Source of the DNA: Candidatus Sumerlaeales bacterium
GTDB lineage: Bacteria > Sumerlaeota > Sumerlaeia > Sumerlaeales > Sumerlaeaceae
Direction of reading: 5' to 3'
Length of the DNA stretch: 37,938 nucleotides
Assembly (NCBI GenBank): GCA_038243585.1
Contig: JBBSQY010000032.1
Coordinates: 1-37,938 of the forward strand
Shown: positions 7,157 to 37,938 of the stretch, piece after piece
Position numbering within the stretch: the stretch's first letter is position 1
How the letters are laid out: the number at the start of each line of letters is the position of its first letter
The notes under the pieces: generated by a model
Told to the model about the DNA's origin: nothing
The model's database searches: none
What the model saw: the letters and a program-made list of their open reading frames with translations, nothing else
Position numbers and translations under genes: made by a program

Positions 7157-7394
7157 TGAAGTTTCATTGCCTTTCAGGCGAGGTTCGTTCAGGAATCCTG
7201 ACATGGAAATTATTTCATTTCCATTGCCGGGGTATTACCAGTACCATACCAGTACACGCGGATGATACGCGCATTGATAAATTGTGCTTAATTCCGCGCG
7301 GTAAACTCGCCAGGGTGGTTCATTATGTTACAGTGAGATAACTGCCCAAATATCCTTTCGCTGAAAATGCTTAACTTATGTAAGTTTCAGCGAG

Positions 7395-14921: not shown

Positions 14922-14965
14922 AATCAGCAATAAACATCTAATACTTGTCTCAATCAAAATACCTG

Positions 14966-14994
14966 TTGACCTCGCAGATCGCCGCTTATAGTTT
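14966..14994 (+). promoter_or_regulatory. Possible sigma70 promoter of the GGDEF-EAL/cbiX operon
   Basis: TTGACC-N17-TAGTTT in an AT-rich intergenic region. Confidence 0.35.
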
Positions 14995-15060
14995 AAGGAA
15001 GCGCTAAAATAAGCTTTAACAAGTGGAACTTCTTACGCGAATTAATTACTTAACTAGCAA

Positions 15061-18000: not shown

Positions 18001-18993
18001 CTGAGCGCGCCTGTTCGCATAAACAGCTTTCCCGTGGAGGTCACGGTAAGCATCGGCATAGCCTTTGACAGGCCCGAGTATGCGGAGCCGGATGAACTAC
18101 TGCGCGACGCCGATACCGCCATGTATCGCGCAAAAGAAAACGGAAAAAACCGTTACCAGGTGTTCGATCAGCAGATGCACAATAGCGTTTTAGGGCGACT
18201 CCAGTCGGAAAGCAGCCTGCGGCGGGCTGTGGCGCGGCAGGAGTTTGTTCTGCATTACCAGCCAGTATACTCCATGAGCGACAGCAGCCTGTCAGGATTT
18301 GAAGCATTGGTTCGGTGGAATCATCCGGAGAAAGGACTGGTGCCGCCGGCGGAGTTCATACCCCTCGCTGAAGAAACCGGTCTGATTATTCCCATGGGGT
18401 GGTGGATCATTGATCAGGCGGCCCGGGCTTCTGCCGTATGGAACCGTAATCGCTCCGACGACAACCGGTTAAAAATCAGTATAAACGTTAGCCCTAAGCA
18501 GTTTTCCCAGCCCAATGTGCTGGAGCACATGATGAGTCTGATAGCGGATTCGGGAGCTCGCCCGGAAGATATCGTTCTGGAAATTACGGAAACCCTCCTC
18601 ATGGAAGACTCCGCTGTTGTATCGGAAGTCTTGCAGCAGCTGAGAGGAACATGTATCTGCCTGGATCTGGACGATTTCGGGACCGGCTACTCCTCCTTGT
18701 CCTTTTTACGCCGCTCGCCCCTGGATATGATCAAGATTGATCAGTCGTTTGTGCGGGATTTATGCGCAGACACCAAAAGTCAGGAAATTGTAAAGGCCAT
18801 CATGTCTCTGGCCAGAGGGCTGGGTCTTCGGGTCACCGCCGAGGGCGTCGAAACCATTGAGCAGTATGAAACGCTTTTACAGATGGACTGCGACTGGGCG
18901 CAGGGCTATTTTTTCCATCGCCCCATGCCGTTCGAAGAGACACTGAAAATACTTTCACAAAAATTCGAACTGCCCTCGCTGCGCCCCCATTGA
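15061..18993 (+). CDS. Diguanylate cyclase/phosphodiesterase, GAF-GAF-PAS-PAS-PAS-PAS-GGDEF-EAL
   Basis: Four PAS/PAC units ending RDITERK, RDVTEK, RDVTSR and SDITSRK. HDALTGLPNR, DLDRFKVVNDSLGH, RPGD I-site plus RMGGDEF, GFEALVRW, DDFGTGYSS. The TTG start is uncertain. Confidence 0.95.
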   Translation: MDESLEADRDKLQVKPPEASGRNRTIPADAETVIAQLRADLERTDNLKAVSHLMRDACNRLWQWDAFFFNVRRGRGSGHFRSFLLIDTIGGEKIDCTKGHSFHAEWSDTWSQLSQGKPVLRNPIAHECKTGVHSWGDSERLSASLMFSPVVINDRVMAIISVQSYTSNQFDRADTALLMRLADVCAPTVSRCLSSEYTQEFLNLGKRLNRVVDTNGVARIIAETAANLLGWDFFSLHLLDPAKSVLNLEVAIERRKTDSKFFPASGNSIYPQPGRIQDALTGKAISVVTKQITLDDRRQLLPFGDSLPLLSSLIFAPIRDGDHLMGLICLQSTISSALGRDEAETVAELAEYCSGALKRAWAQQVLKEHSENYRLLVENINDAVVISQNEHFVFFNHRFAAMLNYDFEELQEKTYKNIYTKEGLDILYARGAQREAGVDVPGNYETFFATKNGHALPVEANVAIIPDYKGQRATFAVIRDITERKEVEEKLQQSEQQFRTLFDAMTDLIMVLDENGTYLNHGVGGYHQLALPWEQVVGRTCHELFSKEKADYFVQNIHRALQHRETVSIEYDIDREGGNQWFNAFISPLSETTVLIVARDVTEKRKAADDLFRSNARYKALLDGSEDYIFVLDRDLRFLHVNSVIEKRFGTTPEARIGQTVWDLYKDKEIPPYISVIQQVFTTGESATYDDDAVLNEKLICTETVISPVFDRSGEVEAVLGVSRDVTSRRQSALALEKSEQRYAVAVRGANDGIWDLDMQANNLYLSPRWWAIIGEETDGDDGNFAPDVWFDRVHVEDVVLLQEKIHDHVQGRTPHLENEHRIRHSDGTYCWVLCRGLCVRDDSGRAIQMAGSMSDITSRKDAEEKLQFGARHDALTGLPNRPHFLYCLQKAMARARRRGNDSGQFAVLFLDLDRFKVVNDSLGHLAGDELIIATARRLEKCVRPGDTVARMGGDEFTILLEDLSQGGDVIQVATRIINELSAPVRINSFPVEVTVSIGIAFDRPEYAEPDELLRDADTAMYRAKENGKNRYQVFDQQMHNSVLGRLQSESSLRRAVARQEFVLHYQPVYSMSDSSLSGFEALVRWNHPEKGLVPPAEFIPLAEETGLIIPMGWWIIDQAARASAVWNRNRSDDNRLKISINVSPKQFSQPNVLEHMMSLIADSGARPEDIVLEITETLLMEDSAVVSEVLQQLRGTCICLDLDDFGTGYSSLSFLRRSPLDMIKIDQSFVRDLCADTKSQEIVKAIMSLARGLGLRVTAEGVETIEQYETLLQMDCDWAQGYFFHRPMPFEETLKILSQKFELPSLRPH

Positions 18994-19475
18994 TTTCGAA
19001 ACCGGCATTGGTGCTGTTCAGCCACGGATCACTACTTTGTGGATCTGGAAGCACGCTGGATGCACACGCGCAGCAGCTTCGAGAATCTGGCGACTTCAGC
19101 ATGGTTGAACCAGGGTATCTTAACTACAGCATTCCGCCGGTGGAAGAAGCGGTGCGGCGATGCGTAGAGGCCGGCGCGACCACGATTGTTATAGCCCCCT
19201 ATTTCCTGGTGGCGGGCAAGTTTGTGATCGAGGATCTGCCGCCCAGACTGGAATCGGTGATTCCATTGTTCCCACAAATCAATTTTGTAGTGACGCGCGC
19301 GCTGGAAGATTCTGAAGACATGCCTCCCGCGATCGAACAGGTGCTTGTAACCGCAGAGGATCCGAAGAAATGGCAACGCCGCGCCATTGAGAAAGCCCGG
19401 AGCCAGTGTGAACTGCGCAAGGACTGCCCCCTGTATGGCTCGCCCATGTGCCGCTCAGGATCGGCGAGCGCATGA
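18990..19475 (+). CDS. Short CbiX/SirB-family chelatase domain protein with Cys-rich tail
   Basis: FSHGS, GYLNYSIPPVEEAV, APYFLVAGKFVIEDLP and C-terminal CELRKDCPLYGSPMC. TTGA overlap with the upstream stop. Confidence 0.8.
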   Translation: MISKPALVLFSHGSLLCGSGSTLDAHAQQLRESGDFSMVEPGYLNYSIPPVEEAVRRCVEAGATTIVIAPYFLVAGKFVIEDLPPRLESVIPLFPQINFVVTRALEDSEDMPPAIEQVLVTAEDPKKWQRRAIEKARSQCELRKDCPLYGSPMCRSGSASA

Positions 19476-19909
19476 TGGCTGACGAGACGGAAGGCGGCGT
19501 AGCGTCAGCTCTGGCCGAAGCGTCTGGTCGGGACCGTCCCGCCATAATTTTGATACTTCACGGCAGCCCACGCCCCAGTGCAAACCAACCTGCGTGCCAG
19601 ATCGCGGAGGTTCTTCGCGGCTCGGACAGATTCTCTCAAGTGATGATGGCGTACCTTGAATGCAACTCGCCGACAATTCCGGAGGCCCTGGATGAGTGCG
19701 CCAGCAGCGGTGCCAAACGAGTAATCGCGGTGCCCTACTTTCTACACGCCGGCCGTCACATCGTGCTTGATGTTCCGAACCTGCTTCTGGAAGCCGAGCT
19801 TCGCCATCCGCAAATGCAAATATTAATTTGTGACGCTGTGGGAACGTCCCCATTAATAGCGAAAGCCCTGACCGGCAGAGCCCATGAGGCGCTTGCAAAG
19901 TCATCATAG
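19472..19909 (+). CDS. Short CbiX/SirB-family sirohydrochlorin chelatase
   Basis: LHGSPR, AYLECNSPTIPEAL and VPYFLHAGRHIVLDVP (both His ligands present). ATGA overlap with the previous gene. Confidence 0.85.
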   Translation: MMADETEGGVASALAEASGRDRPAIILILHGSPRPSANQPACQIAEVLRGSDRFSQVMMAYLECNSPTIPEALDECASSGAKRVIAVPYFLHAGRHIVLDVPNLLLEAELRHPQMQILICDAVGTSPLIAKALTGRAHEALAKSS

Positions 19910-20008: not shown

Positions 20009-20512
20009 TTACATTGGCTGCATCATCAGATCCGGAGACGCTCCAGCCACAGGTTTTGTGGTAATCTCATCGAGCATTGTTTTTACCTCAGGATTATAAG
20101 AAACGACGCTGGCTGCAGCCTCCAACAGCGGGCGAGCTTCTTCAATTTTCCCCTGATCAATCAGCGTCCGTGCCTGCGCTACCTGGGCCTGCGCCTGAGT
20201 CTCTAGCGCAGCCTCCGCCTGGAGAGTGCTGAAGTCGAACATGTTCAGGTCCGCAACCCGCTTAATATCCGGCGCCGACTCGAGGGTCGGGGTTCCGGAC
20301 ATATTTTGCAGCAGCTCCAATGAAGGGCTCTCCGCCAGCTGATCTGTAAACAATGCTTCTTTGCCTGTCGCATCCGCAGAACCCAACGCGCTGTTTTGCT
20401 CCTGCCACCACGCGAAAAGCAGTCCGGCAAAAATCAACGCCAAAATACCGATAGTGATTTTGTCCGCATTCTTAGCCAGTTTCTTTTTCGTTTGCGCAGA
20501 TTTTTCGCTCAT
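20009..20512 (-). CDS. Bitopic membrane protein with a C-terminal TPR-like helical pair; probable partner of PilMN
   Basis: Basic N-terminus, TM segment ITIGILALIFAGLLFAWW, TPR-like QARTLIDQGKIEEARPLLEAAASVVSYNPEVKTML. Lies 47 nt downstream of pilMN on the same strand. Confidence 0.65.
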   Translation of the reverse strand: MSEKSAQTKKKLAKNADKITIGILALIFAGLLFAWWQEQNSALGSADATGKEALFTDQLAESPSLELLQNMSGTPTLESAPDIKRVADLNMFDFSTLQAEAALETQAQAQVAQARTLIDQGKIEEARPLLEAAASVVSYNPEVKTMLDEITTKPVAGASPDLMMQPM

Positions 20513-20559
20513 GTAATAATCCCATATTCTATATGACTTTAGTTAAACCGGCAAAACTC

Positions 20560-22530
20560 TTACATCATGCCTTCCATGCCCATCATGGCTGGGTCGCCCA
20601 TGTAGCCCATCCCGGCATCCGGGGTAGCTGCAGGCGCTGGCGTCCAATGGCCTGGCGTCAACGTTACTCTTGCGGGGGCCAAACGGGTGCTCTTCCAGGC
20701 CACTTCGCCAATGACGATAAAGGTCTGTTGGGCAGCACCGGCAGAAGGATTGGCGGCCGTGCCTGCGTTAGTCAGCTGCACGGTGTCCGCTTTGATCCAT
20801 TCAGGCTGAAGCCTTATGGCGTTAAGAAAAGAGACATAGGCGCTCTGCGACTGTGCTTTGCCGGTAATCCGGAACTTGCCGTTTGGCTGTAGTTCCAAGG
20901 CGTCAAATGCCACACCCGCCGGCTTCATGCTTTCAAGGGCGGCCATAAATTCCAGCCAGAAGTCTCGATCCCCAAGAGCCTGACCCACTGCCGTTATTTT
21001 ACTTTCCACGGCCTGCCGCTCGGCTCGCGCCTGGCTCAAGAGCCCTCGGTCCGTATTTGCCTGGGTCAGAGAATCCTGATTTTTATTAATCCAGCCGCGC
21101 ATATTGCTGATTTCACTGGTACCGATTAATGCGCTTAGACCGATCAAGGCAAGCAACAGCGCCGCCATAATCCCCAGCTCCAACTTTTTCTTTTTAAATT
21201 CTCTTACGGTTTTCAGGTCCCGAGGCAGAAAATCCGCGTTGACGTGACCAAACCCGAGTCCGCTGAGCGCCAGGCCAAATGCCACCAGGTAAGACGTCAA
21301 AACACTCCCGCTTGGCCCATCCACAATTAGCAGATCCGGATTCTGCGGCGCTTCCCGCAATTCGACAGGAACACCCAGACGATCTTCCATAAAGCTGGCA
21401 AGACCCGCCAGCTCTGCTCCCCCGCCGCTGATTACGACACTGTCAACGGCCATACCATCGGGCTGCGCGATATAGAAATCAAAGGACTTGCGGATTTCAA
21501 GGACCATCTTCTCTGCCCATTTCACCGCAATTTCCGAAGCGGGATTGGTAGGTTCAGTGTCCAGGTCCAGGCTGGTCGGAAGTACAACTTCTGTTTTCTT
21601 CAACTCATCCGCCTGCGCGGGATCAATATTAAGCTGCGCCACTAGAAGACGGGTTAGTTCTCCGCCGGCCCAGGCCACGCTGCGGGTAAAGCCGAGCATC
21701 TTGCGGCGGCCGTGACGGGCGATAGCCAGATCAAATGTCCGGCTGCCGATGTTGATGTAAGCCTTAACTTCTTCAAACAAGTCGTCCGCAGGCGGAAGAT
21801 CATCTATTTGGAACGTGTCTCCGTCCAGATCCTCTGGCATGGTCGCAGAAGCAACATCGTCCGGATCAAGCTTCTTTTTCTTGCCCAGCGACATCTTCGG
21901 CATCTTGAAGGATTTCTTGGTGGCGCGCTTGCCTGAGTCTGTTGATGGGGCTGCGGAAGTCGGCGCTTCAGCCTCTTTCAGCGCTTCCATCATATCGGCG
22001 AACGGCGTGCTGTCGAACACGTGAAAATTGAACAGGGCCAGGGATGTGACCGAAATCATGGCCGGCCGCAGACCACATTTGCGCACGAGACCCATGAAGT
22101 CGTTAACAATATCTGTTTTAATGGCGGCCAGCAGCACTTCCACCTCGCCGGAATCGCCGTAGTCGAACACCTGATACTCCATTAATGAAAGCTCAGGAGG
22201 AAATGGAATCTGCTGCTTCGCCTCATAAGCCACGATGCGGTGCAGGCGCTCTTCGTTTGTACGCGGGAATCGAATACGACGGATAAATACGTTCTGCCCC
22301 GGCACGGAAAAGACGGCGTCTTTCGTAGTAATTTTGTTGGCGCTAATTAATTGGCGCACAACCTTGGCGATCTCGTCCATGCGCGCCTGGTCCATGGGGC
22401 CCGGAGGCAGAGCCACTTCCCCACGCAGCATACGGGTTATCCGTGCACCGTTTTTTTCGGCGACTATTTCGGCAATCTTCACACTTGTGGTGCCGACATC
22501 AATTCCAAGGCATTTCTTAAGCCGCTGCAT
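20560..22530 (-). CDS. pilM: Type IV pilus assembly PilM-PilN fusion protein
   Basis: LGIDVGTTSVKIAE, EAKQQIPFP, EIRKSFDFY, ISGGGAELAGL, AFGLAL (actin-like PilM). Then VNADFLPR, a TM helix, a coiled coil and a ferredoxin-like PilN domain (FRITGKA...FLNAI). Confidence 0.85.
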   Translation of the reverse strand: MQRLKKCLGIDVGTTSVKIAEIVAEKNGARITRMLRGEVALPPGPMDQARMDEIAKVVRQLISANKITTKDAVFSVPGQNVFIRRIRFPRTNEERLHRIVAYEAKQQIPFPPELSLMEYQVFDYGDSGEVEVLLAAIKTDIVNDFMGLVRKCGLRPAMISVTSLALFNFHVFDSTPFADMMEALKEAEAPTSAAPSTDSGKRATKKSFKMPKMSLGKKKKLDPDDVASATMPEDLDGDTFQIDDLPPADDLFEEVKAYINIGSRTFDLAIARHGRRKMLGFTRSVAWAGGELTRLLVAQLNIDPAQADELKKTEVVLPTSLDLDTEPTNPASEIAVKWAEKMVLEIRKSFDFYIAQPDGMAVDSVVISGGGAELAGLASFMEDRLGVPVELREAPQNPDLLIVDGPSGSVLTSYLVAFGLALSGLGFGHVNADFLPRDLKTVREFKKKKLELGIMAALLLALIGLSALIGTSEISNMRGWINKNQDSLTQANTDRGLLSQARAERQAVESKITAVGQALGDRDFWLEFMAALESMKPAGVAFDALELQPNGKFRITGKAQSQSAYVSFLNAIRLQPEWIKADTVQLTNAGTAANPSAGAAQQTFIVIGEVAWKSTRLAPARVTLTPGHWTPAPAATPDAGMGYMGDPAMMGMEGMM

Positions 22531-27247: not shown

Positions 27248-28399
27248 TTACATGCGACTTTGCTGCTGAACCTGATCCCAATGTATGCACCGAACTGTAT
27301 GGCCCGGAGATACCTCGAACAGCGGCGGAACCGCCTCGGTACACTCGACCGTTGCAAACGGGCACCTCGTATGAAACCGACATCCCGCAGGATGTTGACT
27401 CGGATCTGGAACGTTGCCTTCGATGGAGTAAAGTTTTTTCTGCTGCTTTATCTCATCTATCCGGGGAATCGATTTTAATAAGCCAACAGTATAAGGGTGA
27501 CCCGGGTTGTCAAACAAACTTTTCACATCAGAATATTCAACTATCTGGCCCGCGTACATCACCGCAACATGGTCGCTAATTTCCGCGATAACCCCAAGAT
27601 CGTGAGTTATCATCATAATTGAGGAGCCAAATTCCGCTTTAAGCTCCTCCATTAAATTTAAAATCTGGGCCTGCACTGTGACATCCAGCGCAGTCGTTGG
27701 CTCATCCGCAATCAGCAGGTCCGGATTGCAGGCCAGCGCCATGGCGATCATAACACGCTGGCGCATGCCGCCGCTCATCTGGTGGGGATACTCTTTTACG
27801 CGTTGCTTCGAGCTCGGAATTTTGACAAGGTCAAGCATTCGAACCGCTTCCTGCTCTGCCTCGCGCCGTCCCATCCCGCGATGAACCCTGAACACTTCGC
27901 CAATCTGATCCCCAACTGTAAAAACCGGATTGAGCGACGTCATTGGCTCTTGAAAAATCATGCTGATTTCATTACCGCGTATGCGCCGCATCTCCCGCTC
28001 GGAGAGATCCAGTAGATTTTTTCCCCGATAAAAAATCCGACCGTTTTCAATTTTACCTGGTGGTGTGGGAATCAGGCGCAAAATGGATAATGATGTCACG
28101 GACTTGCCGCAACCGGACTCCCCAACGATGCCCAGGGTTTGACCTTTTTTGATCGCGAAACTCACGCCGTCGACGGATTTATACGTGGCTTCCGAAGTGT
28201 GAAAGTAAGTCTTAAGATCGTCAACAACCAGCAGGTTATCCGCCGGATCCATATGCAACTGCTGGAAATGGGGTACAGACTGGGCCTTTTCGGACGCAGG
28301 GCCAGCCGGCAGGTTAGGTCGCACCGCGCCGTCGGGCTTTGGTGCCACGGCGCTCAAAGCCACTGTCCTAATTTTTTCTGTAATGCGATCATCGGTCAT
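27248..28399 (-). CDS. Oligopeptide/dipeptide ABC transporter ATP-binding subunit (OppD/DppD family)
   Basis: GESGCGKS Walker [34 protein letters not shown] and GCRFHTRCP. Start taken at ATG 28399 (uncertain). Confidence 0.93.
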
Positions 28400-28484
28400 A
28401 GAACTAAACCATTGGAGGGGCCTGTCAAGGCGAACCGACCAAAAAAGCGCATTGAAGTTTAAAAGCAGGATTCGGGGTGCATAC

Positions 28485-28521
28485 AAAAAAAGCCGGGAAG
28501 AGAAAAAGCTCTCTTCCCGGC
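28485..28521 (-). terminator. Rho-independent terminator of the secretin gene
   Basis: GCCGGGAAGAGA/TCTCTTCCCGGC 12-bp stem plus U7 on the minus strand, about 30 nt after the stop. Confidence 0.9.
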
Positions 28522-28552: not shown

Positions 28553-31500
28553 TCAGGGATCAATAAGGTGGCAGGTAAGGAAGATCAGCAGGTTAGTGCG
28601 GTCGATCTTATCTGAGGTGCGTCCGAAGAGCAGTTTACCGACATAAGGCAGATTGCGCAACACTGGCACACCGGAATCACTGGTACGGCTACGTTCGCCT
28701 GTCCAGCCTCCCAGAACAATCGTCCCGTGATTATTAACGCGGGCTACTGTGGTGAGAGAGCGACGTCTAACTTCGTAAGGCACCACAGACCCATCTGGAG
28801 GAAGATGTAAAGCTGGCGGAGTAAAGCCATAGCCAACATAGTGGTCAACAGAGCCGCTGATAGCGGGGCCGCCTGCACCTATGGAAGTTGTGCTCCCACC
28901 GACAACTGTCGGAAATCCGGGGCTGATCTGATTGCCAAAGTCAGCAAATTGCAGATCGGTAATCTCCAGTCGTATCTCGCCCGCCTGCGTAATCTGCGGT
29001 GTGACCGACATGTTAACATGGTTAATACGTGGTACCCTGGTTTGCTCTGAGTCACCCGTACCTCCAACGCTTGTACTGACCAGACCGAAGTCACGGCTGA
29101 CCGAGAACTCCGCCAGTTCATTGTTTTCGACGGTAATGGTTGGACCATTCGTCATGTTCAAGACACCTTCACTCTCAAGTGCCCTGAGCGTAAAGCTGAT
29201 TGGAGACTCTCCGCCTGTAATAATGTTAAAGACAGACGTTCCTTTAAGCAGACTATTGTTAAAGGTATCGTCGGCGAAAGGATCGAAAGGCGACCGACCT
29301 AGCTCTCCAATCTGATCATTTTTAGCAAAGTCAAAAAAGTTGGAGTTGTTGCTGAAATCCGGTGAACCCTGGCCTAGATTGGCTAGATTCAACTCGGGCA
29401 TGAACTCTTTAGCCCTGGTCTCATTAACTTCCACCAGCTTTGTCTCGATGCTGACCTGCATGACTGGGATATCCAGTTGCTCAAGCCAGTCCTTAACTTC
29501 GGCTATTTCATTCGGGTTTGTATAACGAATCAGAAGCGCATTCATGTTTGGAACGTTTTCTATCACAATTCCGATCTCTTCATCGATCGAATTAGTAATT
29601 GCACCTGCGATTGTGTTGCCCGGAGCGCTCGGAACGAAGCCGAGTCCACCTCCAGCGAGGCCGCCACCAGGAAATCCGCCGCCCAAACCGCCCCCAAATC
29701 CTACGCCACCGATTGCGCCGGCGCTTATTGCGACTCGCAAGCGAACGCTGCCTTCACCGCTGCCGGCATCAGACGGACGGATGTCTTCAGCCGTAATCTC
29801 ATATTCGTCGACGAATTCCGTATCAAATTCTTCGAGCGTAAGATCCTGGCTGCTGGTTGCAGTGCGAACGATCAATTCTGCGGAGCGCTGGTTATTGCCA
29901 CCACCACCACCACCGCCGCCAGTGTCTGGCTGCCCTTCAATGCGCCGAACACGAATGTTCAGATCACCGAATATGAGTTCGCCCTCAGTGCGTACTGTCT
30001 TAGTTACTGAATTTCCAACTCCACCGCCTACACGGCCGAGCCCTGCGCCAAGGCCAAGAACCTGATCAAGTAGAGTTTTCATTTCGACTGCCGTCTGATG
30101 TTTCAGAAAAATAATTTCAGACTTCTGTTCGGATGAGCTAAGAGTCGGAAGTGATTTAAGATAATCGCTTACGATCTCCAGGTTGCCAGGGTTATCAGTT
30201 ATAGTAAGTTGAAGGCTGTTCGGATCATACCAGAAACGGCGGCCTTCTGCTGCGGCTGATTCTTCACCGCTTTGCGAGTAGAGGATAGTCTTAACAACGG
30301 TCACGATGCTTTGTGCCATGTCTCGTGCCTGCTCGACATTTTCAGGTCCGATAGGTTCCCGCGGTACAAGGCTGTAAGACTGAACTCCCAAGGTCTGATT
30401 TTCCAACTTTTTGAGAAAGTTTTTATCTAATAGGAGCTGTTCGATCTTCGCTACGTTTTCTGCGGAATCTTTTACAATCAGATCGTCGCCATCAACTACG
30501 ACGCGGCGATCAAGATCCCATGCAGCGTCCGAGTTAACTTTTACGATCGCCTCAACCAGGGCTTTAATCCGCTGGCCTTCTTCAGGTCTGATTTTCCAGT
30601 TTTTAAAGACCAGTTGCTGCGGCGCGTCCACTTGAAGATCCTTCAGGAACGCTTCGATCTTATTAAGATTCTCTGCGCTGTCTGTTACGATCAGCAGGTT
30701 TTCCCGATCGTCAAGCAACAGCTCGACGTTTCTCATCGGAGGCAGACCTTCGGGACCATAGAGGTACCGCTGTAGTGTCCGGTTTTCCAGCAAAGGCTTA
30801 AGGCGGCCTACTTGGGCCGGTGTCAGATTGTAGAACTTGTTGTGCAGATCCGTGGTTACTGATACCACGTCACCAGTGCGATGCCATTTCAACCCAACAG
30901 GCAGAAGCACGATGTCTAATGCGTCCTGAAGCACAGTCTGATCAAATTTAGCGGTAACGCTTAAGTCGGCGTCTACGCCGTCCGCCACATAAAAGTTGAT
31001 GTCCGTGATTAGCGACATCGCCTGCAGAAACTCTACGAGGGTTTTTTGCCCTGCGGAATCGTACGTTACTGCTGTTTCAAGCTTGTTGGTGGAAGAGACT
31101 TCTTTTTGGAGCTCCACCGCGTTATACTGATGCTGTTGCACCCAAGCCTCATACTCGGAGCGAGTTTGCTCAAGGTACTGAACGGCACGCGGATGGTTTG
31201 GATCAAGAGTCAGCGCAAAGTTCCAGTGTTGAACAGCGACATCAAGGCGCGCGGCCTGATAAGCCACGAGACCCTGTTGAAACGCGGACTCAGCATCCTG
31301 AGCTGTCTGCGCTGTTGCAATCGAAGGGCCACCCGGAATAGAAGGGAGCGGAACAGGTCCGCCTTCACCAGCGCGAGCAACTTCAATTTTCCTGATATAT
31401 GCTTTAGCCTCTGCATTGGCCGGGTCTTTATCCAGGACAGCCTGAAAAGTAGTCAGAGACTCGCGAAGCTGACCCGATTCAAATTTTGAGCGGCCTTCCG

Positions 31501-33631
31501 TTAGAAGCGACCCCACTCCGTCTGGTCCAGGACCAATAGGAGGAGGAAGAATCGGAGCTTCCGGCGACGCGACATCTAAAGAGGTTGATTCAACAACGGT
31601 GTCAGTTGCCGGCGTCACATCTGCTACGACCTCCGTGGTGGTAACAGCAACGGCACCCAGAGACGGCAGTGCTTTTACGCTATCGGAAGATAGTTCCTCC
31701 GCTAGTTTGGCAGCACTTGTGTTCTTCGGATCCAGTACTATCGCTTTGCGGACAGATTCCAGAGCCTGCTCGCGGCGCCCTTCCTGCAAATCAGTCTGAG
31801 CTGTGCGCAGGAGCTTATCTGCTTCTACGATCGGATCAGTTGATGCACTGGCGTCGCCTGCGGCTTCCCCATTTGAAGTTAAAGTAGATGTTGAAACACT
31901 GACTGTTTTTTCGGTTTCCGTAACGGCAACGCTGCTTGCCTGGGCGACTTCTTTAAGGTCATCTTTTAATTGATCAAGATTAAGAACCGGAGCGGCTTTT
32001 TCTTTAGCTGGCTTTGCCTTGGCTTCCTCCAGCTTGCGCTCGGCACGTTCAAGGTAGCTTTGAGCTTCGCGATAATCCGACTGCGTTGCCAGGGCCAACT
32101 CAAACTTTTTGCGCGAGTCCGAATACTTGCCCGCGTTATAAAGCTTAATTCCTTCGTTCGTTTCAGATACAGCCTGGTTAAAAAGTTTCTTATCCGCAGC
32201 GGCCTGGGCAAGCTTCTTCTCTGTCTCAGCTTTAGCGGCGGCTTCAGTAGCTTCTTTTTCAGCATCGGCAAGTTTGCGAGCTTCGTCAGCTTTTTTCTCG
32301 GCCGCTTTGCGGTCTTCTTCAGCCTTGGCGGCTACTTCAGCAGCTTCACGATCAGCTTCCGCCGTTTTGGCCGCAAGCTCTTTCTCAGCCTTTACCTTCT
32401 CGGCTTTTTCCTTGGCTACCAGTTCTTTTTCGGCTTTTTCGCGGTCAGCTTTTTCTTGCTCAGCCTGCGCTGCAGCCTTCTTCTCAGCGGCGATCTTTTC
32501 CTTCTCCGCTTTATCGGCTGCTAGTTTCTCCGCCTTGGCAACAGCTAGCTTCTCAGCCTTATCAGCCTTGGCTTGCTCAGCGGCTGCTTTTTCGTCTCGT
32601 GCTTTTTTCTCGGACTTCTGGCGTGCGGCTTCTTTTATAACTTCAGCCTTGGCATCAGCCTCAGCCTTGTCTTTGGCTTTCAGATCTACTTCAAGGTTAA
32701 GTTTTGCAGCTGCGCCTGGCGCTGGAGGATCCAGGCTGGCGACAACTTTGGCATCACCCTGCTGCAACTTCGCTGCTCCGTCGGCTAGCCCAATGCTTGC
32801 CTCCGATAGAAGTTCACGGGCAGATACCACACGCTGGCCGCCGACTTTTTGGGTCAGCCGACCGATAGCTTGGGCGGCATCATTCGCCGCCGCCTCATCG
32901 GACTTTGATGCAGGCGCGGCAGATTTGGAAACGTTATCATCAAGTTTGGGTTTTACGGGTTCGCTTTCAGGCGCATCTGCTTTAGCAACTTCCGCCTTAA
33001 TGGCCACAGCTTGAACTGCGGGCTTATCATCAAGCGAAACAGCTATCGACACCGGCCTCGAAAACGAATTACTGCCCCCGTCAAGGGCCATTGAAACGGA
33101 TCCCTTAACTGAGACTTGCTGGTCGTTTCCGCCAAATGACTGGGTAACAGGCGCAGGTGTGGCATTAGCTTTAACCGCGTTAACGGTAGCCACCACATCC
33201 ACTTTATCTGTACGGCCAGCAACCCCGGCAGGGATTTGGGCCGACAACGCATTTGGAGAAAAACGCTCTCCGCTGCTCTTCTGGTCAATCTCACGCAGAT
33301 ACCTCTGCGCCTCAGAATTAGCGTCATCCAGTTTCAGTGCATCACTGAAATACGAGCGCGCAGTAAGCATTTCACCATCACGATAAGCTCGGCGACCATC
33401 CACCAGCAGTCGTGATAATTGCTCAGTGCTACTCAGTCCGCCCCCAGGATTCTGGGGTGCAGGTTGTCCGCCCTTTTTTACGACGGCACGCTTATTGCTC
33501 TTAGTTGATTCAGATTTCGTGGGCTGCGCAGGGGAGTCCGCCGGTATAACACCGGCGCAGTAGCCCGCCATGCCCAGCGGCACGAACAGAAAAAAACAGA
33601 GCGTAAACTCTCGGCGAGTTTTTAACAGCAT
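28553..33631 (-). CDS. Giant outer-membrane secretin (GspD/PilQ superfamily) with N-terminal TPR units and a TolA-like helical segment
   Basis: C-terminal LDIPVMQVSIETKLVEV, LRALESEG, VTPQIT, GTIVLGG and SGVPVLRNLPYVGKLLFG...LLIFLT. N0/STN domain (LVEFLQAMSLITDINF...LQDALDIVL) and three N-type repeats. GAGGAG RBS. Confidence 0.9.
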   Translation of the reverse strand: MLLKTRREFTLCFFLFVPLGMAGYCAGVIPADSPAQPTKSESTKSNKRAVVKKGGQPAPQNPGGGLSSTEQLSRLLVDGRRAYRDGEMLTARSYFSDALKLDDANSEAQRYLREIDQKSSGERFSPNALSAQIPAGVAGRTDKVDVVATVNAVKANATPAPVTQSFGGNDQQVSVKGSVSMALDGGSNSFSRPVSIAVSLDDKPAVQAVAIKAEVAKADAPESEPVKPKLDDNVSKSAAPASKSDEAAANDAAQAIGRLTQKVGGQRVVSARELLSEASIGLADGAAKLQQGDAKVVASLDPPAPGAAAKLNLEVDLKAKDKAEADAKAEVIKEAARQKSEKKARDEKAAAEQAKADKAEKLAVAKAEKLAADKAEKEKIAAEKKAAAQAEQEKADREKAEKELVAKEKAEKVKAEKELAAKTAEADREAAEVAAKAEEDRKAAEKKADEARKLADAEKEATEAAAKAETEKKLAQAAADKKLFNQAVSETNEGIKLYNAGKYSDSRKKFELALATQSDYREAQSYLERAERKLEEAKAKPAKEKAAPVLNLDQLKDDLKEVAQASSVAVTETEKTVSVSTSTLTSNGEAAGDASASTDPIVEADKLLRTAQTDLQEGRREQALESVRKAIVLDPKNTSAAKLAEELSSDSVKALPSLGAVAVTTTEVVADVTPATDTVVESTSLDVASPEAPILPPPIGPGPDGVGSLLTEGRSKFESGQLRESLTTFQAVLDKDPANAEAKAYIRKIEVARAGEGGPVPLPSIPGGPSIATAQTAQDAESAFQQGLVAYQAARLDVAVQHWNFALTLDPNHPRAVQYLEQTRSEYEAWVQQHQYNAVELQKEVSSTNKLETAVTYDSAGQKTLVEFLQAMSLITDINFYVADGVDADLSVTAKFDQTVLQDALDIVLLPVGLKWHRTGDVVSVTTDLHNKFYNLTPAQVGRLKPLLENRTLQRYLYGPEGLPPMRNVELLLDDRENLLIVTDSAENLNKIEAFLKDLQVDAPQQLVFKNWKIRPEEGQRIKALVEAIVKVNSDAAWDLDRRVVVDGDDLIVKDSAENVAKIEQLLLDKNFLKKLENQTLGVQSYSLVPREPIGPENVEQARDMAQSIVTVVKTILYSQSGEESAAAEGRRFWYDPNSLQLTITDNPGNLEIVSDYLKSLPTLSSSEQKSEIIFLKHQTAVEMKTLLDQVLGLGAGLGRVGGGVGNSVTKTVRTEGELIFGDLNIRVRRIEGQPDTGGGGGGGGNNQRSAELIVRTATSSQDLTLEEFDTEFVDEYEITAEDIRPSDAGSGEGSVRLRVAISAGAIGGVGFGGGLGGGFPGGGLAGGGLGFVPSAPGNTIAGAITNSIDEEIGIVIENVPNMNALLIRYTNPNEIAEVKDWLEQLDIPVMQVSIETKLVEVNETRAKEFMPELNLANLGQGSPDFSNNSNFFDFAKNDQIGELGRSPFDPFADDTFNNSLLKGTSVFNIITGGESPISFTLRALESEGVLNMTNGPTITVENNELAEFSVSRDFGLVSTSVGGTGDSEQTRVPRINHVNMSVTPQITQAGEIRLEITDLQFADFGNQISPGFPTVVGGSTTSIGAGGPAISGSVDHYVGYGFTPPALHLPPDGSVVPYEVRRRSLTTVARVNNHGTIVLGGWTGERSRTSDSGVPVLRNLPYVGKLLFGRTSDKIDRTNLLIFLTCHLIDP

Positions 33632-34291
33632 CTAAGGGACCCTTCTCCTCTAGCGATGCTCACAAATGCTAGCAATCAATGGTTTTGGCAACCGGCGTCA
33701 CATCCCGTCGAATTTCAAACAATGGCGGAAAATTAACCAACTACCCTCGGCAATGCGGCTGTTATTAAGAACCCCGATATGTGAAAGCAACTAAAAACCG
33801 CACTGCAATCACAGGAAAACCAACGGACTTTTCACCAACAAACGCAAACTCCCTTGAAAGGGAAACCGCTTGTCGTATTTTACAGTACGGTCGTCAACAA
33901 TAAATTACGCACATGTATGGAAAAATGAAACTTCGCGACTTAGAGGCTAGGTCGCTGCGGTAAAAGATACGGGTTTAGCGTAATCCGTCCTAATTTATAA
34001 ATCATTAGTTAAAGCCGGAGTTCAGGCGCTATACCTGAGTACGGAGCTCTTTTTGACGGCGAGATATATTTAGAATTCGTGGCTAAATGACCCGTTCTGC
34101 AATTCGACATGTCAAAAAAAACACCCTGACAGACGGAGTACTGGAGAGCAGGGTTCCGTCCAACGACAAGATTTACGTTTTACAGATTATACGCTAATTT
34201 AAACAGCGGCAGTAATCCGTCCGCCATTAAATCCAGAGGTAGGTAATGGCGCGTCCATCCTCATCCTCCCGGAAACCGCAAGACACCTCTA

Positions 34292-35611
34292 TCATCCAGC
34301 AGATCGTTGCTTAATCTCAATAAACGAGTTTAACAGCGGAATCGTCAGTTGCTTCGGTTCCACATCCAGCACATGGATTCCGCTGCGTTTCAGGGTGTGC
34401 AGGGTTTGCTCCCGTTCCCGCATAAGCCTGAGGGCGAAAGTTTTTCGGGCAACGTCCTGACTATCATCAATCGGCTCCAGCGCCGCCTGAGTCAGCAGCG
34501 GCGTTCGCAGCGCGGCAAACACAATTTCGTGCCTCCCTCGCAAAGACATCAGTGCCGCCCGATACCGCTCTGTGGTCTCCGCCTCCATCATATCCGACAG
34601 GATCACAAGCAGCGCCCGCTTGCGCTGCCGGCTTTGCAGGGTGGCAAACATCGGGGCGAAATTCGTTTCCACCCAGCCCGGTTTCACATTATAAAGATGG
34701 TCGATAAGAATGCGGTGAGACGCCGCCCCGGCGATGGGCGACAAAAACCCGCGCACCTTGCTGTCGAAAATCCCCAACCCACAGCGGTCCCCGGTCTGCA
34801 GCGCCACCCTCGCGATTACCAGCGCCGCGTTCACTGCGCAATCCAGCTTAGTGCCATTCTCCACCTGAGTGCCCATCAACCGGCCACAATCCACCAGCAC
34901 CACCACGTCCCGGTGTTGCTCCATCTGATAGCGACACACGATGAGCCGGTTTAGCCGCGCGGTGCTTCGCCAATTGATCCGACGCACGTCATCGCCCTCT
35001 CGATATTCCGACAGCGATTCGAATTCGGTCCCGTCTCCGCGATTGCGAGACTCGCTGATCTGGTCCATTAACTGGCGTTCATCCAGGGCGTCCTTCGACA
35101 ATTCTTCATCCGGAACAAGACTTTCCGGCAGAACCCGAATGACCGAGCCAGTCGCACAGGATTTTTGCAACTCCACCAGTCCCAGCTTTCCCTTAATGCG
35201 CAACCATGAATTTCCGAAGGTATGACTCCCGCGCTCCGGGATCGTCAGCGGGTAGGAAAGCAGCGTCTCCCCCGGCCCGATTTCCGACGGATATATCTGC
35301 AACTGCTGCAATGCGCCCGGCGGCACAACATCCCGAACGATCCCCCGATAGTCGCCGCCGCCCACGTTCACGATATTAAGCTTCACCGAAAACATACGCC
35401 CCCGCGCGACAATCGGCGGCAGAATACGCTCCACCTGGATACGCTTAAGGGCCAGCCTCAGCGACCACCCCTCCGCGACCGACGCCACGACCAGCAGCGC
35501 CATCAGGACCAGAGAAGCCTGCATGGCCACGGGAGTAAAAAAGGCCAGTCCTGCCAGAACAGTAAGGACCGCCACAGCCCAAATGGCCGTTGTACCGGGC
35601 CGAAAGATCAA
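34292..35611 (-). CDS. DUF58 domain protein (MoxR-associated)
   Basis: Two N-terminal TM segments, GTEFESLSEYREGDDVRRINWRSTAR, LVDCGRLM, KLDCAVNAAL and GDRCGL. TTGA coupling to moxR. Confidence 0.9.
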   Translation of the reverse strand: MIFRPGTTAIWAVAVLTVLAGLAFFTPVAMQASLVLMALLVVASVAEGWSLRLALKRIQVERILPPIVARGRMFSVKLNIVNVGGGDYRGIVRDVVPPGALQQLQIYPSEIGPGETLLSYPLTIPERGSHTFGNSWLRIKGKLGLVELQKSCATGSVIRVLPESLVPDEELSKDALDERQLMDQISESRNRGDGTEFESLSEYREGDDVRRINWRSTARLNRLIVCRYQMEQHRDVVVLVDCGRLMGTQVENGTKLDCAVNAALVIARVALQTGDRCGLGIFDSKVRGFLSPIAGAASHRILIDHLYNVKPGWVETNFAPMFATLQSRQRKRALLVILSDMMEAETTERYRAALMSLRGRHEIVFAALRTPLLTQAALEPIDDSQDVARKTFALRLMREREQTLHTLKRSGIHVLDVEPKQLTIPLLNSFIEIKQRSAG

Positions 35612-36555
35612 CGGGGAACTTCAACCATATCCATTACGTTCTCCAGCAGGTCGTCCGCCCGGGCCCCTTCCATCTCGGCCATCGGGCTAAGCACCACGCG
35701 GTGCCGCATCGTGGGCAGAAACACACTCTTCACGTCATCCGGGGTCACATAGTCCCGGTCCGCGAACCGCGCCAGGCTTTTCGCCGCCATCAGCAGCATG
35801 ATTCCCGCGCGCGGGCTCGCTCCCACCGCCAGGCTGTCGTCGTCGCGGGTGCCCTGCACCAGCTTCTGCACATAAGTGATGACTTCGTCCCGAACGAAAG
35901 TCTCGCGGATTACCCCACGCGCCTCCAGTAACTCCGCCGGCGTCACCACGGCCTCCACGCCCATGCCCGCCGGGTTGCCCCGGCCGCCTGTCCCGTGGTG
36001 ACCGCGCAGAATCTGTTCCTCGTCCTGCGCCGCTGGATAATCCACAATTAGTTTAAACATGAAACGATCCAACTGCGCAATAGGCAGCGGATACGTGCCT
36101 TCCTGTTCAATGGGATTTTGCGTTGCGAAAACCACAAAAGGATCAGGAAGCGCATAGGTGTGCCCCCCATAGGTGATCTGCAATTCCTGCATGGCTTCCA
36201 GCAGCGCCGACTGGGTGCGGGCCGAGGCGCGGTTGAGCTCGTCCGCAAGAAGGAAGTTTGTAAAAACCGGTCCCCGCACAAAATCAAACGTGCGAGTGTC
36301 CTCTCGAAACACGCTGGACCCCGTAATGTCACCCGGCAATAGATCCGGCGTCATTTGCACGCGGCCATAATCAAGCTGCAACGCTGCAGCGATGGTTCGC
36401 ACCAGCAGGGTTTTCGCGGTGCCCGGCACTCCCTCCAGCAGCACGTGGCCGCTGCTGAACAACGCGACCACCGCAAGATCCACCACCTCGTCCTGCCCGA
36501 ATATCACCTTGCCAAGCTGCTCCCTGATGCGACCATGTACGTCTTTTAAAGACAC
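35608..36555 (-). CDS. moxR: MoxR-family AAA+ ATPase
   Basis: GHVLLEGVPGTAKT, TPDLLPGDITG, LLADELNRA, ATQNPIEQEGTYPLP.AQLDRF and GASPRA. Confidence 0.95.
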   Translation of the reverse strand: MSLKDVHGRIREQLGKVIFGQDEVVDLAVVALFSSGHVLLEGVPGTAKTLLVRTIAAALQLDYGRVQMTPDLLPGDITGSSVFREDTRTFDFVRGPVFTNFLLADELNRASARTQSALLEAMQELQITYGGHTYALPDPFVVFATQNPIEQEGTYPLPIAQLDRFMFKLIVDYPAAQDEEQILRGHHGTGGRGNPAGMGVEAVVTPAELLEARGVIRETFVRDEVITYVQKLVQGTRDDDSLAVGASPRAGIMLLMAAKSLARFADRDYVTPDDVKSVFLPTMRHRVVLSPMAEMEGARADDLLENVMDMVEVPR

Positions 36556-37862
36556 CGGTTTATCTCCCTCGATACTTCTAAAAATTGCGCGTCGTCCACT
36601 GATTGTTTCTGGCCTAAAAGCCCGTCGATCTTCTGGTTGGCCGATCTGAGATGTCCAGCTTTTTCCGGGTGATGCCGCTCCAGGGCGGCAGCCACATCCG
36701 TCACGTTTTCCTGCCCGGGCGAAAGAGACAGCCGCTCTCGCAGAGCCCAGACCACTCCCCTTCGCAGCTCATACAGCAAAAACCGCTTTTGGCGCGAACG
36801 CGTAAACAGGGTCGCCATGGCGTCCAGATATTCCCCGAGTGACCGACGACTGACCGGCTTCGGAGACAACGGCGGACCCAGGGCCACCGCCTGCCGCCAG
36901 ATCCACGCCGCGACACCAAATGCAACAATTACGAACAGCCACCCATAATGCGGCAGTGTAAGCAGCCAAAGCGGATTGCCGCGCGCCATGAGGCCATGGT
37001 AAAACTCATCAAATACAAGCGAGCGTCCCCCGCCGCCGAGAAGGTTAACCGTCAGCACAGCATTATCGCTTTTATCCACCAAATAATTATTAAACAGGGC
37101 AGAATCCGTCACCACCGTAACCTGCCCCCTCCCCTGTGGAAACATCGCCACCAGCGTATAATTAACATCATCTTCTGACGTAACCGTCAGGGCGCTTACC
37201 TCGGTCGTTGCGGTAGTTGTCTCTATCACCTGCAACTTTTTCGCGGGCAGGCGCAACTGCCTCACATCCGCAGCGAGATATGTCAGATCATTGATTAGCG
37301 TGGCGGATGTCAGTCGTGTGGAGCGCTCTTTGGTCACCTCAACGCCAACAACTTTTTCTCGCTGCGCCCGCTCCCGGTCCGCCACAAGATCCGCAGAGGT
37401 GGTCGTCTCAGCTTCCAGAGAAATCTCCGTCAATGCCAGCGCCGGAAATCCCAGTTCTTCGATAACCGTCGTGTCCCAGATTTCGTTGTCGGACAGTTTT
37501 TCCCAAGTATCATCGGCATAAGAAGCCAGGACGACAACAGCATGGCCTCCATTCTCTATCCATTCCGCGGTACGCGCCAGATGTTCGGATTCATATTCCA
37601 CGAGATTCTGGTCGGGCGCGATCAGCAGCAGACGATCGTTAGACCCCAGACCCATGGGCGGTGGCGTAAGCGATCGCCGAACCGGCACGCGTAGCTTCTC
37701 AAGGATTTCATAAATTCCGCGATGGCCGTGGGCCCTGGTGCCATAGGTGTTCTTCGCCAACCCACCGGAATCCGGCGGCTTCGACAGATTGTAAACGGTC
37801 GCGCCGATAGAGAGCAACGCCGCGAGAACAAACAGCACAAGGGCGTTACGGGCGCTAAGCAC
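36546..37862 (-). CDS. DUF4350 domain membrane protein
   Basis: N-terminal TM, NTYGTRAHGHRGIYEILEK, GRGQVTVVTDSALFNN, FDEFYHG, a second TM and EYLDAMATLF. Start more likely GTG 37862 (GAAGG upstream, overlapping the upstream stop) than 37931. Confidence 0.8.
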   Translation of the reverse strand: MLSARNALVLFVLAALLSIGATVYNLSKPPDSGGLAKNTYGTRAHGHRGIYEILEKLRVPVRRSLTPPPMGLGSNDRLLLIAPDQNLVEYESEHLARTAEWIENGGHAVVVLASYADDTWEKLSDNEIWDTTVIEELGFPALALTEISLEAETTTSADLVADRERAQREKVVGVEVTKERSTRLTSATLINDLTYLAADVRQLRLPAKKLQVIETTTATTEVSALTVTSEDDVNYTLVAMFPQGRGQVTVVTDSALFNNYLVDKSDNAVLTVNLLGGGGRSLVFDEFYHGLMARGNPLWLLTLPHYGWLFVIVAFGVAAWIWRQAVALGPPLSPKPVSRRSLGEYLDAMATLFTRSRQKRFLLYELRRGVVWALRERLSLSPGQENVTDVAAALERHHPEKAGHLRSANQKIDGLLGQKQSVDDAQFLEVSREINRCL

Positions 37863-37938
37863 GAAGGTTGCCTTCGGACACGAGTTGTTCGATCTGCTGG
37901 TGCGCCTGAAAACACGCCTCAACGTCGCCACGCGAACA
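37855..37938 (-). CDS. C-terminal fragment of upstream gene, probably a DUF4129 protein (partial)
   Basis: Open frame from the window edge reads CSRGDVEACFQAHQQIEQLVSEGNLRA*. Its stop overlaps the DUF4350 start. The family call rests mainly on the usual DUF4129-DUF4350-MoxR-DUF58 order. Confidence 0.5.
   Translation of the reverse strand, partial: CSRGDVEACFQAHQQIEQLVSEGNLRA

Follow-up and report, generated by a model that had tools for sequence, protein, structure and literature searches.

What is a secretin of 1692 residues, half of which precede the first recognisable channel domain, and which machine does it serve? The question is raised by a stretch of 37,938 nucleotides from a Candidatus Sumerlaeales bacterium (assembly GCA_038243585.1, contig JBBSQY010000032.1), which as a whole is here called the window. 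In it a single ATG-started open reading frame (ORF) of 1692 codons, at 28553..33631 on the minus strand, encodes the protein P0001, with Pfam matches to Secretin, Secretin_N and tetratricopeptide repeat (TPR) domains. Secretins are the outer-membrane ports of pili, of type II and type III secretion and of filamentous phage, and the ways in which they are targeted, anchored and aligned differ by system and are only partly understood. A first-pass annotation had proposed a secretin with built-in TPR units at the core of an undescribed type IV filament or type II secretion variant. Our analysis bears this out only in part. The gene probably specifies a secretin that takes the place of PilQ in the outer membrane, as part of a type IV pilus-like machine of Sumerlaeota. 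This secretin is a distant and much enlarged relative of the Amuc_1098-type PilQ of Akkermansia and related bacteria, and its own tethered TPRs would serve for anchoring or alignment.

The C-terminal 840 residues are modelled as an N0 domain, four ring-type N domains and a secretin barrel. AlphaFold2 was run on residues 770-1692 with 48 sequences (mean predicted local distance difference test score, pLDDT, 75.5). N0 is placed at residues 854-935 (30827..31072, on the minus strand like all features of the protein) by the secondary-structure pattern of the model and by Foldseek matches to GspD/XcpQ N-terminal domains. The four alpha/beta N domains follow at about 938-1013, 1016-1087, 1096-1175 and 1181-1386 (29474..30820), with a Pfam Secretin_N match of 55.8 bits (cut-off 28.2) in two stretches, the best at 1172-1392. 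The secretin core spans residues 1392-1690 (28562..29458), including a disordered insertion at 1569-1617, and scores 91.5 bits on Pfam Secretin (cut-off 27.5), again in two stretches, the last of which pairs residues 1620-1690 with positions 99-168 of the 169-position profile. Only two residues follow this match, so there is no S-domain. When the C-terminal model was compared with the PDB by Foldseek, the best matches were PulD (6hcg, E 1.9e-23) and GspD (5zdh, 2.4e-22), then InvG, with PilQ (6w6m) at 6.4e-19, and at least 30 solved secretins matched at E <1e-12. The last N domain is predicted to carry a conserved beta-rich insertion of about 95 residues (~1208-1302) along with Gly-rich disordered loops. 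Across the family the insertion region has the consensus VTKTLRVE..FRDLRIRV...SVEL..RT.T.S.D.TI.EF.SEF.DDYEI (P0001 residues 1208-1352, ~29576..30010), and the Gly runs flanking the insertion read GGGGGGGG, GGGLGGG and GGGLAGGG; PVC (Planctomycetes-Verrucomicrobia-Chlamydiae) secretins have instead an acidic run in the N0 region.

The N-terminal half was modelled separately (residues 1-870, 35-sequence alignment), with a mean pLDDT of 66 and a predicted template modelling (pTM) score of 0.29. Within it AlphaFold2 gives five separate three-helix units, U1 to U5, each with a block pLDDT above 90 (68-119, ~484-539, 600-648, 706-755 and 770-852) and each consisting of a TPR helix pair and a capping helix, and between them linkers with pLDDT below 50 (23-65, 124-317, 543-597, 652-702 and 757-768). 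From these models we take the five to be independent TPR units on disordered tethers. Pfam cut-offs are reached at only two of them, U3 (TPR_2, 607-637) and U4 (TPR_11, 713-742). All five stand out as conserved blocks when 44 full-length homologues are reduced to a consensus, and a hidden Markov model (HMM) built from the secretin's own units detects every one at an independent E-value below 1e-3. Their turns read, from U1 to U5, LDDANSEA, TQSDYREA, LDPKNTSA, KDPANAEA and LDPNHPRA. The first-pass annotation had all the structural points right: some 850 residues before N0, five separate TPR-like units with DP.N..A-like turns, an end directly after the core and a TolA-like stalk, the last of these a likeness in composition only.

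Along the chain, U1 occupies residues 66-120 (33272..33436; helices 68-84, 88-101 and 106-119, pLDDT 96-97; unit HMM 66-122) and is followed by a disordered linker rich in Ala, Val and Ser (121-317; 32681..33271; pLDDT <50 in 124-130, 132-146, 154-220, 229-253 and 255-317). Next comes the stalk, a predicted long helix rich in Lys, Glu and Ala (318-483; 32183..32680), which runs on into U2. In the model it is formed by residues 318-362 and 375-499, with pLDDT mostly at 70-86 and falling to 55-60 around a break at residues 350-380; over residues 318-499 it contains 31% Ala, 22% Lys, 19% Glu and 10% hydrophobic residues, and its ~170-180 residues would measure roughly 25-27 nm if fully extended. 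U2 lies at 484-540 (32012..32182; helices to 499, then 503-516 and 521-539, pLDDT 94-97; unit HMM 481-537), U3 at 598-649 (31685..31840; helices 600-616, 620-633 and 638-648) and U4 at 704-756 (31364..31522; helices 706-718, 722-735 and 740-755). U5, together with the long helix that connects it to N0, takes up residues 770-852 (31076..31324) in both half-models, its third helix continuing directly into N0. It is the best conserved of the five: the 35-sequence alignment shows no variation at Y791, A799, W803, Y819, T823 and E826, and of these A799, W803 and T823 do not vary among the 44 full-length homologues either. A Foldseek search with the N-terminal half for a more specific relative returned only generic TPR proteins, at query TM-scores of 0.09 or less.

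At its very N-terminus the protein has a probable Sec signal peptide, MLLKTRREFTLCFFLFVPLGMAGYCAG (residues 1-27; 33551..33631), as read from the sequence, with no lipobox. The Cys stands in the context ...GMAGYCAG, with Tyr at -1, and P0007-P0011 have A, S or T in its stead. The stretch MLLKTRREFTLCFFLFVPLGMAGY (residues 1-24; 33560..33631) is near-identical in P0001-P0011 despite widely differing downstream linkers, and conservation of this degree across 11 homologues is unusually strong for a signal peptide.

By sequence comparison, this TPR-bearing secretin is a conserved, lineage-wide family in Sumerlaeota. Residues 850-1692 found 52 matches among proteins of 930-2961 residues, and 50 of them (P0001-P0050, query included; 981-2032 residues) had E <=1.7e-108. 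Every organism-named protein among these 50 is from Sumerlaeota or Sumerlaeaceae, bar two labelled just 'bacterium', and nearly all carry precomputed TPR and secretin domains. A scan of one genome per species, considered here through the best 80 of 349 related stretches (L001-L080), gave the same picture: L001-L051 and L053, where labelled with a taxon, are Sumerlaeota plus one metagenome-assembled genome (MAG) of UBP4, amount to about 51 independent genome loci, and match at 24-67% identity in the best segment over 700-1690 residues where the contig permits. L052 and L054-L080 come from other phyla and match in the core only, mostly at 23-26%, with a few short stretches of ~70-100 residues at 32-45%. 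A library search with residues 1160-1692 matched 224 cluster representatives at E <=1e-10, of which 75 reached E <=1e-30. The idea of a lineage-wide secretin with built-in TPR units therefore holds, the 50 long proteins and about 51 Sumerlaeota-type loci being its basis.

The architecture itself is far from uniform. When the unit HMM was passed over 89 family secretins, some of them truncated, TPR units were found in all of them, from 1 to 14 per protein; five is the commonest of the counts recorded (27/89), ahead of four (19/89) and three (14/89), and several lineages have 8-14 units, partly in tandem with a spacing of ~57 residues. A Lys/Glu/Ala-rich stretch of at least 60 residues is present in 33 of the 89. 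Literature searches found no paper describing the Sumerlaeota secretin or its operon. A paper on Sumerlaeota genomics states that every one of its MAGs contains type IV pilus genes, and the word 'secretin' does not occur in the available parts of its text (PMC8092238).

It is the gene order in relatives that would give the secretin its PilQ position. For this survey ORFs were crudely called in 51 related loci and the window and clustered by blastp, with Pfam run on representatives; long antisense ORFs in GC-rich loci displaced some true genes, among them the secretin in L026 and L029 and the gene at the upstream position in L028. The recurrent order in Sumerlaeota is a pilM-pilN fusion (pilMN, ~650 residues), a small gene that we call C3 (~170 residues), the secretin, and then PolA, CoaE and Rho. 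The fusion lies upstream of the secretin, on its strand, in 30 of the 32 loci having any upstream ORF, the exceptions being L001 and L028, and this order of pilMN, C3 and secretin may be set against the classical pilM-pilN-(pilO-pilP)-pilQ. C3 genes that cluster together occur in 24 loci and the window, and several other loci have an unclustered ORF of 159-206 residues in that slot. The continuation into polA, coaE and rho is a stable synteny in 36 related loci (e.g., L025, 12727..20395); these three being housekeeping genes, their linkage to the secretin is one of synteny, not function.

The window has the same partners, but not in place. Its pilMN (P0082, 656 residues, 20560..22530, minus strand) has Pfam matches to PilM_2 and PilN and scores 143 bits on the NCBIfam pilM model (cut-off 133) and 171 bits on the Amuc_1101 family (cut-off 650); in most relatives it stands two genes upstream of the secretin. 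C3 (P0081, 167 residues, 20009..20512, minus strand) is read as a protein that crosses the membrane once: a short tail in the cytoplasm precedes the membrane helix, and a linker, a conserved NMFD motif (over 23 sequences F92 is invariant and N90 nearly so), a single TPR unit and finally a Pro-rich tail follow it. Against the PDB its profile matches consensus TPR proteins (2.7e-10) and, in FimV, the C-terminal domain with its single TPR (4mal, 4e-4), and the HMM from the secretin units matches its residues 99-153, so that the conserved cluster carries one type of TPR module on both an inner-membrane protein, C3, and the secretin. We considered C3 as a PilO or PilP and rejected the idea, as its PDB profile matches only TPR proteins and Pfam and NCBIfam return nothing specific; in the ESM Atlas it has no match at 0.9 or above, the best being 0.77. 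No PilO, PilP or AMIN domain was detected in the pilMN-C3-secretin cluster by Pfam, NCBIfam or the C3 profile. A predicted complex of secretin residues 590-1020 (U3-U5, N0 and N1) with C3 residues 45-167 scored 0.00 in both runs, which speaks neither for nor against binding.

Both genes (20009..22530) lie 6 kb from the secretin. In the order of the secretin strand the window reads DUF4350, MoxR, DUF58, secretin, ATP-binding cassette (ABC) ATPase, amidase, valyl-tRNA synthetase (on the opposite strand), pilMN and C3. Four nearer relatives (L003, L005, L010 and L011) have valyl-tRNA synthetase, again on the opposite strand, followed directly by pilMN, C3 and secretin, which indicates that the lineage of the window relocated its secretin; in L001, the closest locus, it is likewise detached from pilMN. 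A few kb from pilMN, the same four relatives encode an ATPase of the PilB/GspE type that bears an MshEN domain. Prepilin-like genes of ~200 residues with the N-methylation motif GFTLIELLIVVAI... flank the secretin in L001 (187..801 and 14818..15468), and L051, a UBP4-like MAG, has one more (519..1109) with a weak T2SSG match. When all six frames were scanned for prepilin motifs, the window had none, and the only match besides these three was an implausible one of 83 residues in L035.

The closest described design is found in the PVC bacteria, which the genome scan reached through a common C-terminal motif. Six secretins of Lentisphaeria, Victivallales and Verrucomicrobiota (L060 twice, L061, L062 and L065 twice) match NF042912, the model for Amuc_1098, at 270-320 bits (cut-off 750). 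All four that were scanned with Pfam have an N-terminal TPR match (residues 33-81 or ~190-250) just before N0 in the alignment, and it is with this TPR unit that U5 aligns. When hhalign compared the Sumerlaeota alignment with these six, 636 columns were matched (probability 99.9, E 2e-34); the matched part starts in the U3-U5 region, takes in N0 and extends to the C-terminus, and it skips the N1-N3 region of the Sumerlaeota proteins. This indicates remote homology, and not membership of the Amuc_1098 family. In L060 the gene order is an Amuc_1101-like PilM, a 420-residue protein, an Amuc_1099-like protein, secretin and secretin. Two tandem Amuc_1098-like secretin genes occur in the Lentisphaeria/Victivallaceae loci (L060, 5190..10294; L065, 371..5233), and Sumerlaeota loci have one.

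According to the passages of Ottman et al. (2016) that deal with it, Amuc_1098 of Akkermansia is a 907-residue PilQ with a C-terminal secretin domain and an N-terminal BAM-like domain holding three TPRs 'resembling the pilotin proteins', and is the most abundant outer-membrane protein, its location there shown by immunogold labelling (PMC4960237). A 2026 paper concerns its host effects, as far as the text available goes (PMC13275887). A secretin with built-in pilotin-like TPRs has thus been in print since 2016 and has an NCBIfam model of its own, and the word 'undescribed' in the first-pass annotation has to be given up for the design; a match to an already characterised secretin family, which the annotation had itself named as counting against it, is in part supplied by Amuc_1098. 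What Sumerlaeota have is a phylum-wide, greatly enlarged variant of the PVC TPR-secretin, and it does not stand at the centre of some machine class still to be described.

Sequence comparison did not place the protein within either classical group. Its NCBIfam scores are 132.3 bits for GspD (TIGR02517, cut-off 351.35), 108.9 for PilQ (TIGR02515, 284.35), 82 for SctC (238) and 60 for MshL (250), and on the Amuc_1098 model it reaches 32.4 bits against 750, with a match confined to the last 70 residues. A quick maximum-likelihood tree was built from 61 cores (17 of the family, 13 GspD, 15 PilQ and 16 others; 312 columns kept), labelled by NCBIfam or, for P0069 and P0077, by source name; its rows are nearest hits and include no Tad, type III secretion or phage secretins. 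The 17 family rows form one clade, at 99 in the Shimodaira-Hasegawa-like approximate likelihood ratio test, outside both the PilQ and the GspD groups. As a group the Sumerlaeota proteins fall short of every curated GspD, PilQ and Amuc_1098 cut-off, and their N-terminal regions, with 2-14 units, are much larger. With cut-offs missed, nearest secretins split and the clade separate, sequence did not decide between GspD and PilQ.

Several of our data weigh against a pilus secretin with anchoring TPRs, and should be considered together. No curated secretin-family cut-off is reached, whether for GspD, PilQ, SctC, MshL or Amuc_1098. Of 52 more distant secretins that we scanned, 12 pass the GspD cut-off, 14 that of PilQ and 26 none, and with so near-even a split the core sequence cannot tell pilus from secretion. 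The top Foldseek matches are secretins of type II secretion systems, PilQ structures align with the core only, and a layout of several N domains is closer to GspD than to PilQ. Besides pilMN, the window holds no pilin, ATPase or platform gene. As to the TPR units, AlphaFold2 yields no defined arrangement between them (pTM 0.29), their number, varying from 2 to 14, fits a loose scaffold and equally well a weak constraint, and a role in anchoring or aligning is one that we only infer.

The structural points in this list are also what would favour an export channel, that is, a secretin of type II or polymer-nozzle kind whose TPRs receive cargo or guide polymer as in AlgK/AlgE, BcsC or PgaA. Added to the GspD-like layout from N0 to N3 and the weak T2SSG match of the prepilin-like protein of L051 are glycosyltransferase genes, which lie directly upstream of pilMN in L015, L018 and L025-L027, at a distance of two ORFs upstream of the secretin in L028 and next to it in L001; moreover, PMC12475490 associates secretins with the export of slime and TPR proteins with that of polymers. 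The glycosyltransferase neighbours, however, are not kept across the phylum, the conserved three-gene unit has no synthase or polymerase, and its conserved partners are PilM and PilN, not GspC, GspL or GspM. No gsp gene was found in the window or among the scanned representatives of recurrent gene clusters from the 51 related loci. The protein also lacks an S-domain, and the homologous Akkermansia cluster is regarded as pilus-associated in the NCBIfam names and in the relevant portion of PMC4960237. We therefore regard an export channel as improbable. That the long ORF is an artefact, a TPR gene and an ordinary secretin gene having been joined in assembly or annotation, can practically be dismissed. 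Homologues below 930 residues are fragments (119-918 residues), mostly on contigs of at most 5.1 kb, one exception being P0055 (465 residues, N domains only), which is on a 119-kb contig and, with the fragments, is all that would speak for a fusion; beyond these, short-protein matches fall to ordinary secretins (E ~1e-10, 23-28% identity). Searched against short proteins, the N-terminal 850 residues found three fragments of 105-206 residues and nothing further, so the N-terminal half was not found as a separate gene. Against an artefact stand, too, about 50 independent assemblies with the fused architecture and the single, confidently modelled helix from U5 into N0.

A more serious competitor, if still an unlikely one, is a built-in pilotin, in which the N-terminal TPRs chaperone the protein's own outer-membrane targeting and assembly and replace a lipoprotein of the PilF/PilW/Tgl type. 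TPR pilotins do exist for PilQ, no pilotin-like lipoprotein gene was seen in the conserved cluster, and Foldseek of the N-terminal half lists PilF (2fi7 and 2ho1) at E 3-4e-3, at a query TM-score of just 0.07 and in the company of generic TPR proteins. Known pilotins, however, act at the barrel or S-domain, whereas the units described here are at the N-terminal end, distal from the outer membrane; they are dispersed single repeats rather than a contiguous six-TPR groove, and their number ranges from 2 to 14. The absence of a lipobox and the replacement of the Cys in close homologues argue against the classical lipoprotein-pilotin mode. The pilotin reading has also been suggested for Amuc_1098 (PMC4960237), which counts in its favour. 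We give about the same modest credence to a bolder proposal, namely that the TPR units of the secretin and the unit of C3 make up a new periplasmic connector, with at least 60 tethered modules per channel replacing the PilO/PilP complex and AMIN anchoring and the Lys/Glu/Ala helix serving as spacer in some lineages. If true, an outer-membrane secretin would here be coupled to the inner-membrane platform by a means not known before.

To return to the PilQ-position secretin that we favour, homology suggests that it would assemble, as a 12- to 15-mer, the gated outer-membrane channel of a pilus or pseudopilus. Since U5 is held to N0 through a long helix and also occurs in the PVC secretins, it probably represents an ancestral collar with a structural role, seated under N0 at the channel's base. 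The remaining TPR units would probably be lineage-specific duplications that act as docking sites for proteins on flexible tethers; through them the channel would be anchored in the envelope or lined up with the platform in the inner membrane, perhaps by way of C3. In so doing they may stand in for the AMIN domains, PilP, TsaP or FimV of classical systems. In the lineage of the window, a local rearrangement would have put the secretin 6 kb from pilMN and C3, with a promoter region and terminator of its own.

The flanks of the gene are compatible with such a separate unit. Upstream are 660 nt of non-coding DNA (33632..34291, minus strand), presumably a promoter or leader, with no ORF of 80 or more residues on the secretin strand, and a GAGGAG lies 11 nt 5' of the ATG. 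No regulatory RNA was found in this region: Rfam gave no match at gathering scores in the window and none at E up to 1 in 33500-34400. Downstream, 32 nt past the stop codon, is a feature resembling an intrinsic terminator (28482..28521, minus strand), a hairpin at 28521..28492 with a 13-bp stem, including 8 G-C pairs, and the T-rich tail TTTTTTTGTA. Over the whole window the terminator scan found 7 sites against a shuffle mean of 9.7, that is, not above shuffles, so the case rests on the quality of this single hairpin. The terminator claimed in the first-pass annotation is thereby retained, and its statement that the gene 'stands alone' is right for the transcription unit in the window and wrong for the evolutionary context, where pilMN and C3 lie upstream. 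The downstream ABC ATPase ORF (27248..28486, minus strand) is listed with a TTG start that overlaps the T run of the terminator, and its ABC domain begins only at residue 106; its actual start is therefore probably farther downstream.

Among the other genes of the window, a 1310-residue GAF-PAS-GGDEF-EAL protein (15061..18993, plus strand) adjoins pilMN-C3, and members of its blastp cluster (c14) lie near the secretin in L003, L026 and L039. The MshEN type of domain binds cyclic diguanylate (c-di-GMP), and this neighbour, together with the MshEN ATPase of the relatives, hints at c-di-GMP control. Directly upstream of the secretin is a cluster of DUF4350, MoxR (AAA_3) and DUF58 genes (34292..37937, minus strand) with no evident link to it. 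A LolA homologue, the outer-membrane lipoprotein carrier (6491..7204, minus strand), is consistent with a two-membrane envelope. On the plus strand are a protein of more than 1770 residues that is open at the 5' end of the window (2..5323), with GHL10, three fn3, four Golvesin_C and HYR domains; a 1238-residue M1-family peptidase with a Lamin Tail Domain (11205..14921), a domain also borne by a protein adjoining the secretin in L001 (2497..4854); and two neighbouring, slightly overlapping CbiX-type chelatase genes (18990..19909; 161 and 153 residues).

Although the Sumerlaeota secretin reveals no new class of machine, the family shows how far the TPR-secretin design of Akkermansia reaches: 2-14 units, an optional charged helix, extra ring domains and the companion C3. 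It also connects a second phylum, one that has hardly been studied, with the pilus-like cluster known from the PVC group. Its natural length variants would make a tractable set for probing the role of N-terminal TPRs in secretins.

Comparison with known systems helps to define what is particular to this protein. It shares with PilQ (TIGR02515, of pilMNOPQ) a gene position after pilM and pilN in most relatives though not in the window, the want of an S-domain and an N-terminal extension before N0, and it differs in having no AMIN match in Pfam, which the PilQ-type matches L052 and L076 do carry, in having four N domains after N0 where PilQ has one, and in a cluster with no detected PilO or PilP homologue. 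GspD/PulD (TIGR02517) resembles it in joining N0 to several ring-type N domains and gives the best structural matches; unlike GspD, the Sumerlaeota secretin has no S-domain, no gspC-M neighbours and an extension of 850 residues made of TPRs and helix. The pilotins PilF, PilW and Tgl and scaffolds of the FimV type likewise tie TPR modules to a pilus secretin. Pilotins, however, are separate lipoproteins with contiguous TPRs, and the solved TPR domain of FimV is cytoplasmic, whereas here five single units with linkers of pLDDT <50 are a covalent part of the secretin, in the periplasm. With domain II of TolA the likeness is that of a long Lys/Glu/Ala-rich helix, by composition only: there is no TolA match in Pfam or NCBIfam at E up to 0.01 and no domain III, and a comparable helix is found in just the 33 family secretins counted above. 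The nearest counterpart is the Amuc_1098-type PilQ (NF042912), which has in common with the Sumerlaeota protein a TPR-bearing N-terminal region with one unit directly before N0, then the secretin core, the C-terminal ...NLLIFLTC.L..P motif and a gene located behind a long PilM-like gene of the Amuc_1101 family. Next to it the Sumerlaeota secretin is about double the length, with five dispersed units where Amuc_1098 is reported to have a single compact domain of three TPRs, a Lys/Glu/Ala helix and three further ring-type N domains to which nothing in the PVC alignment corresponds, and it comes from a cluster in which PilM and PilN are fused and a single small TPR protein, C3, takes the place of Amuc_1099 and Amuc_1100.

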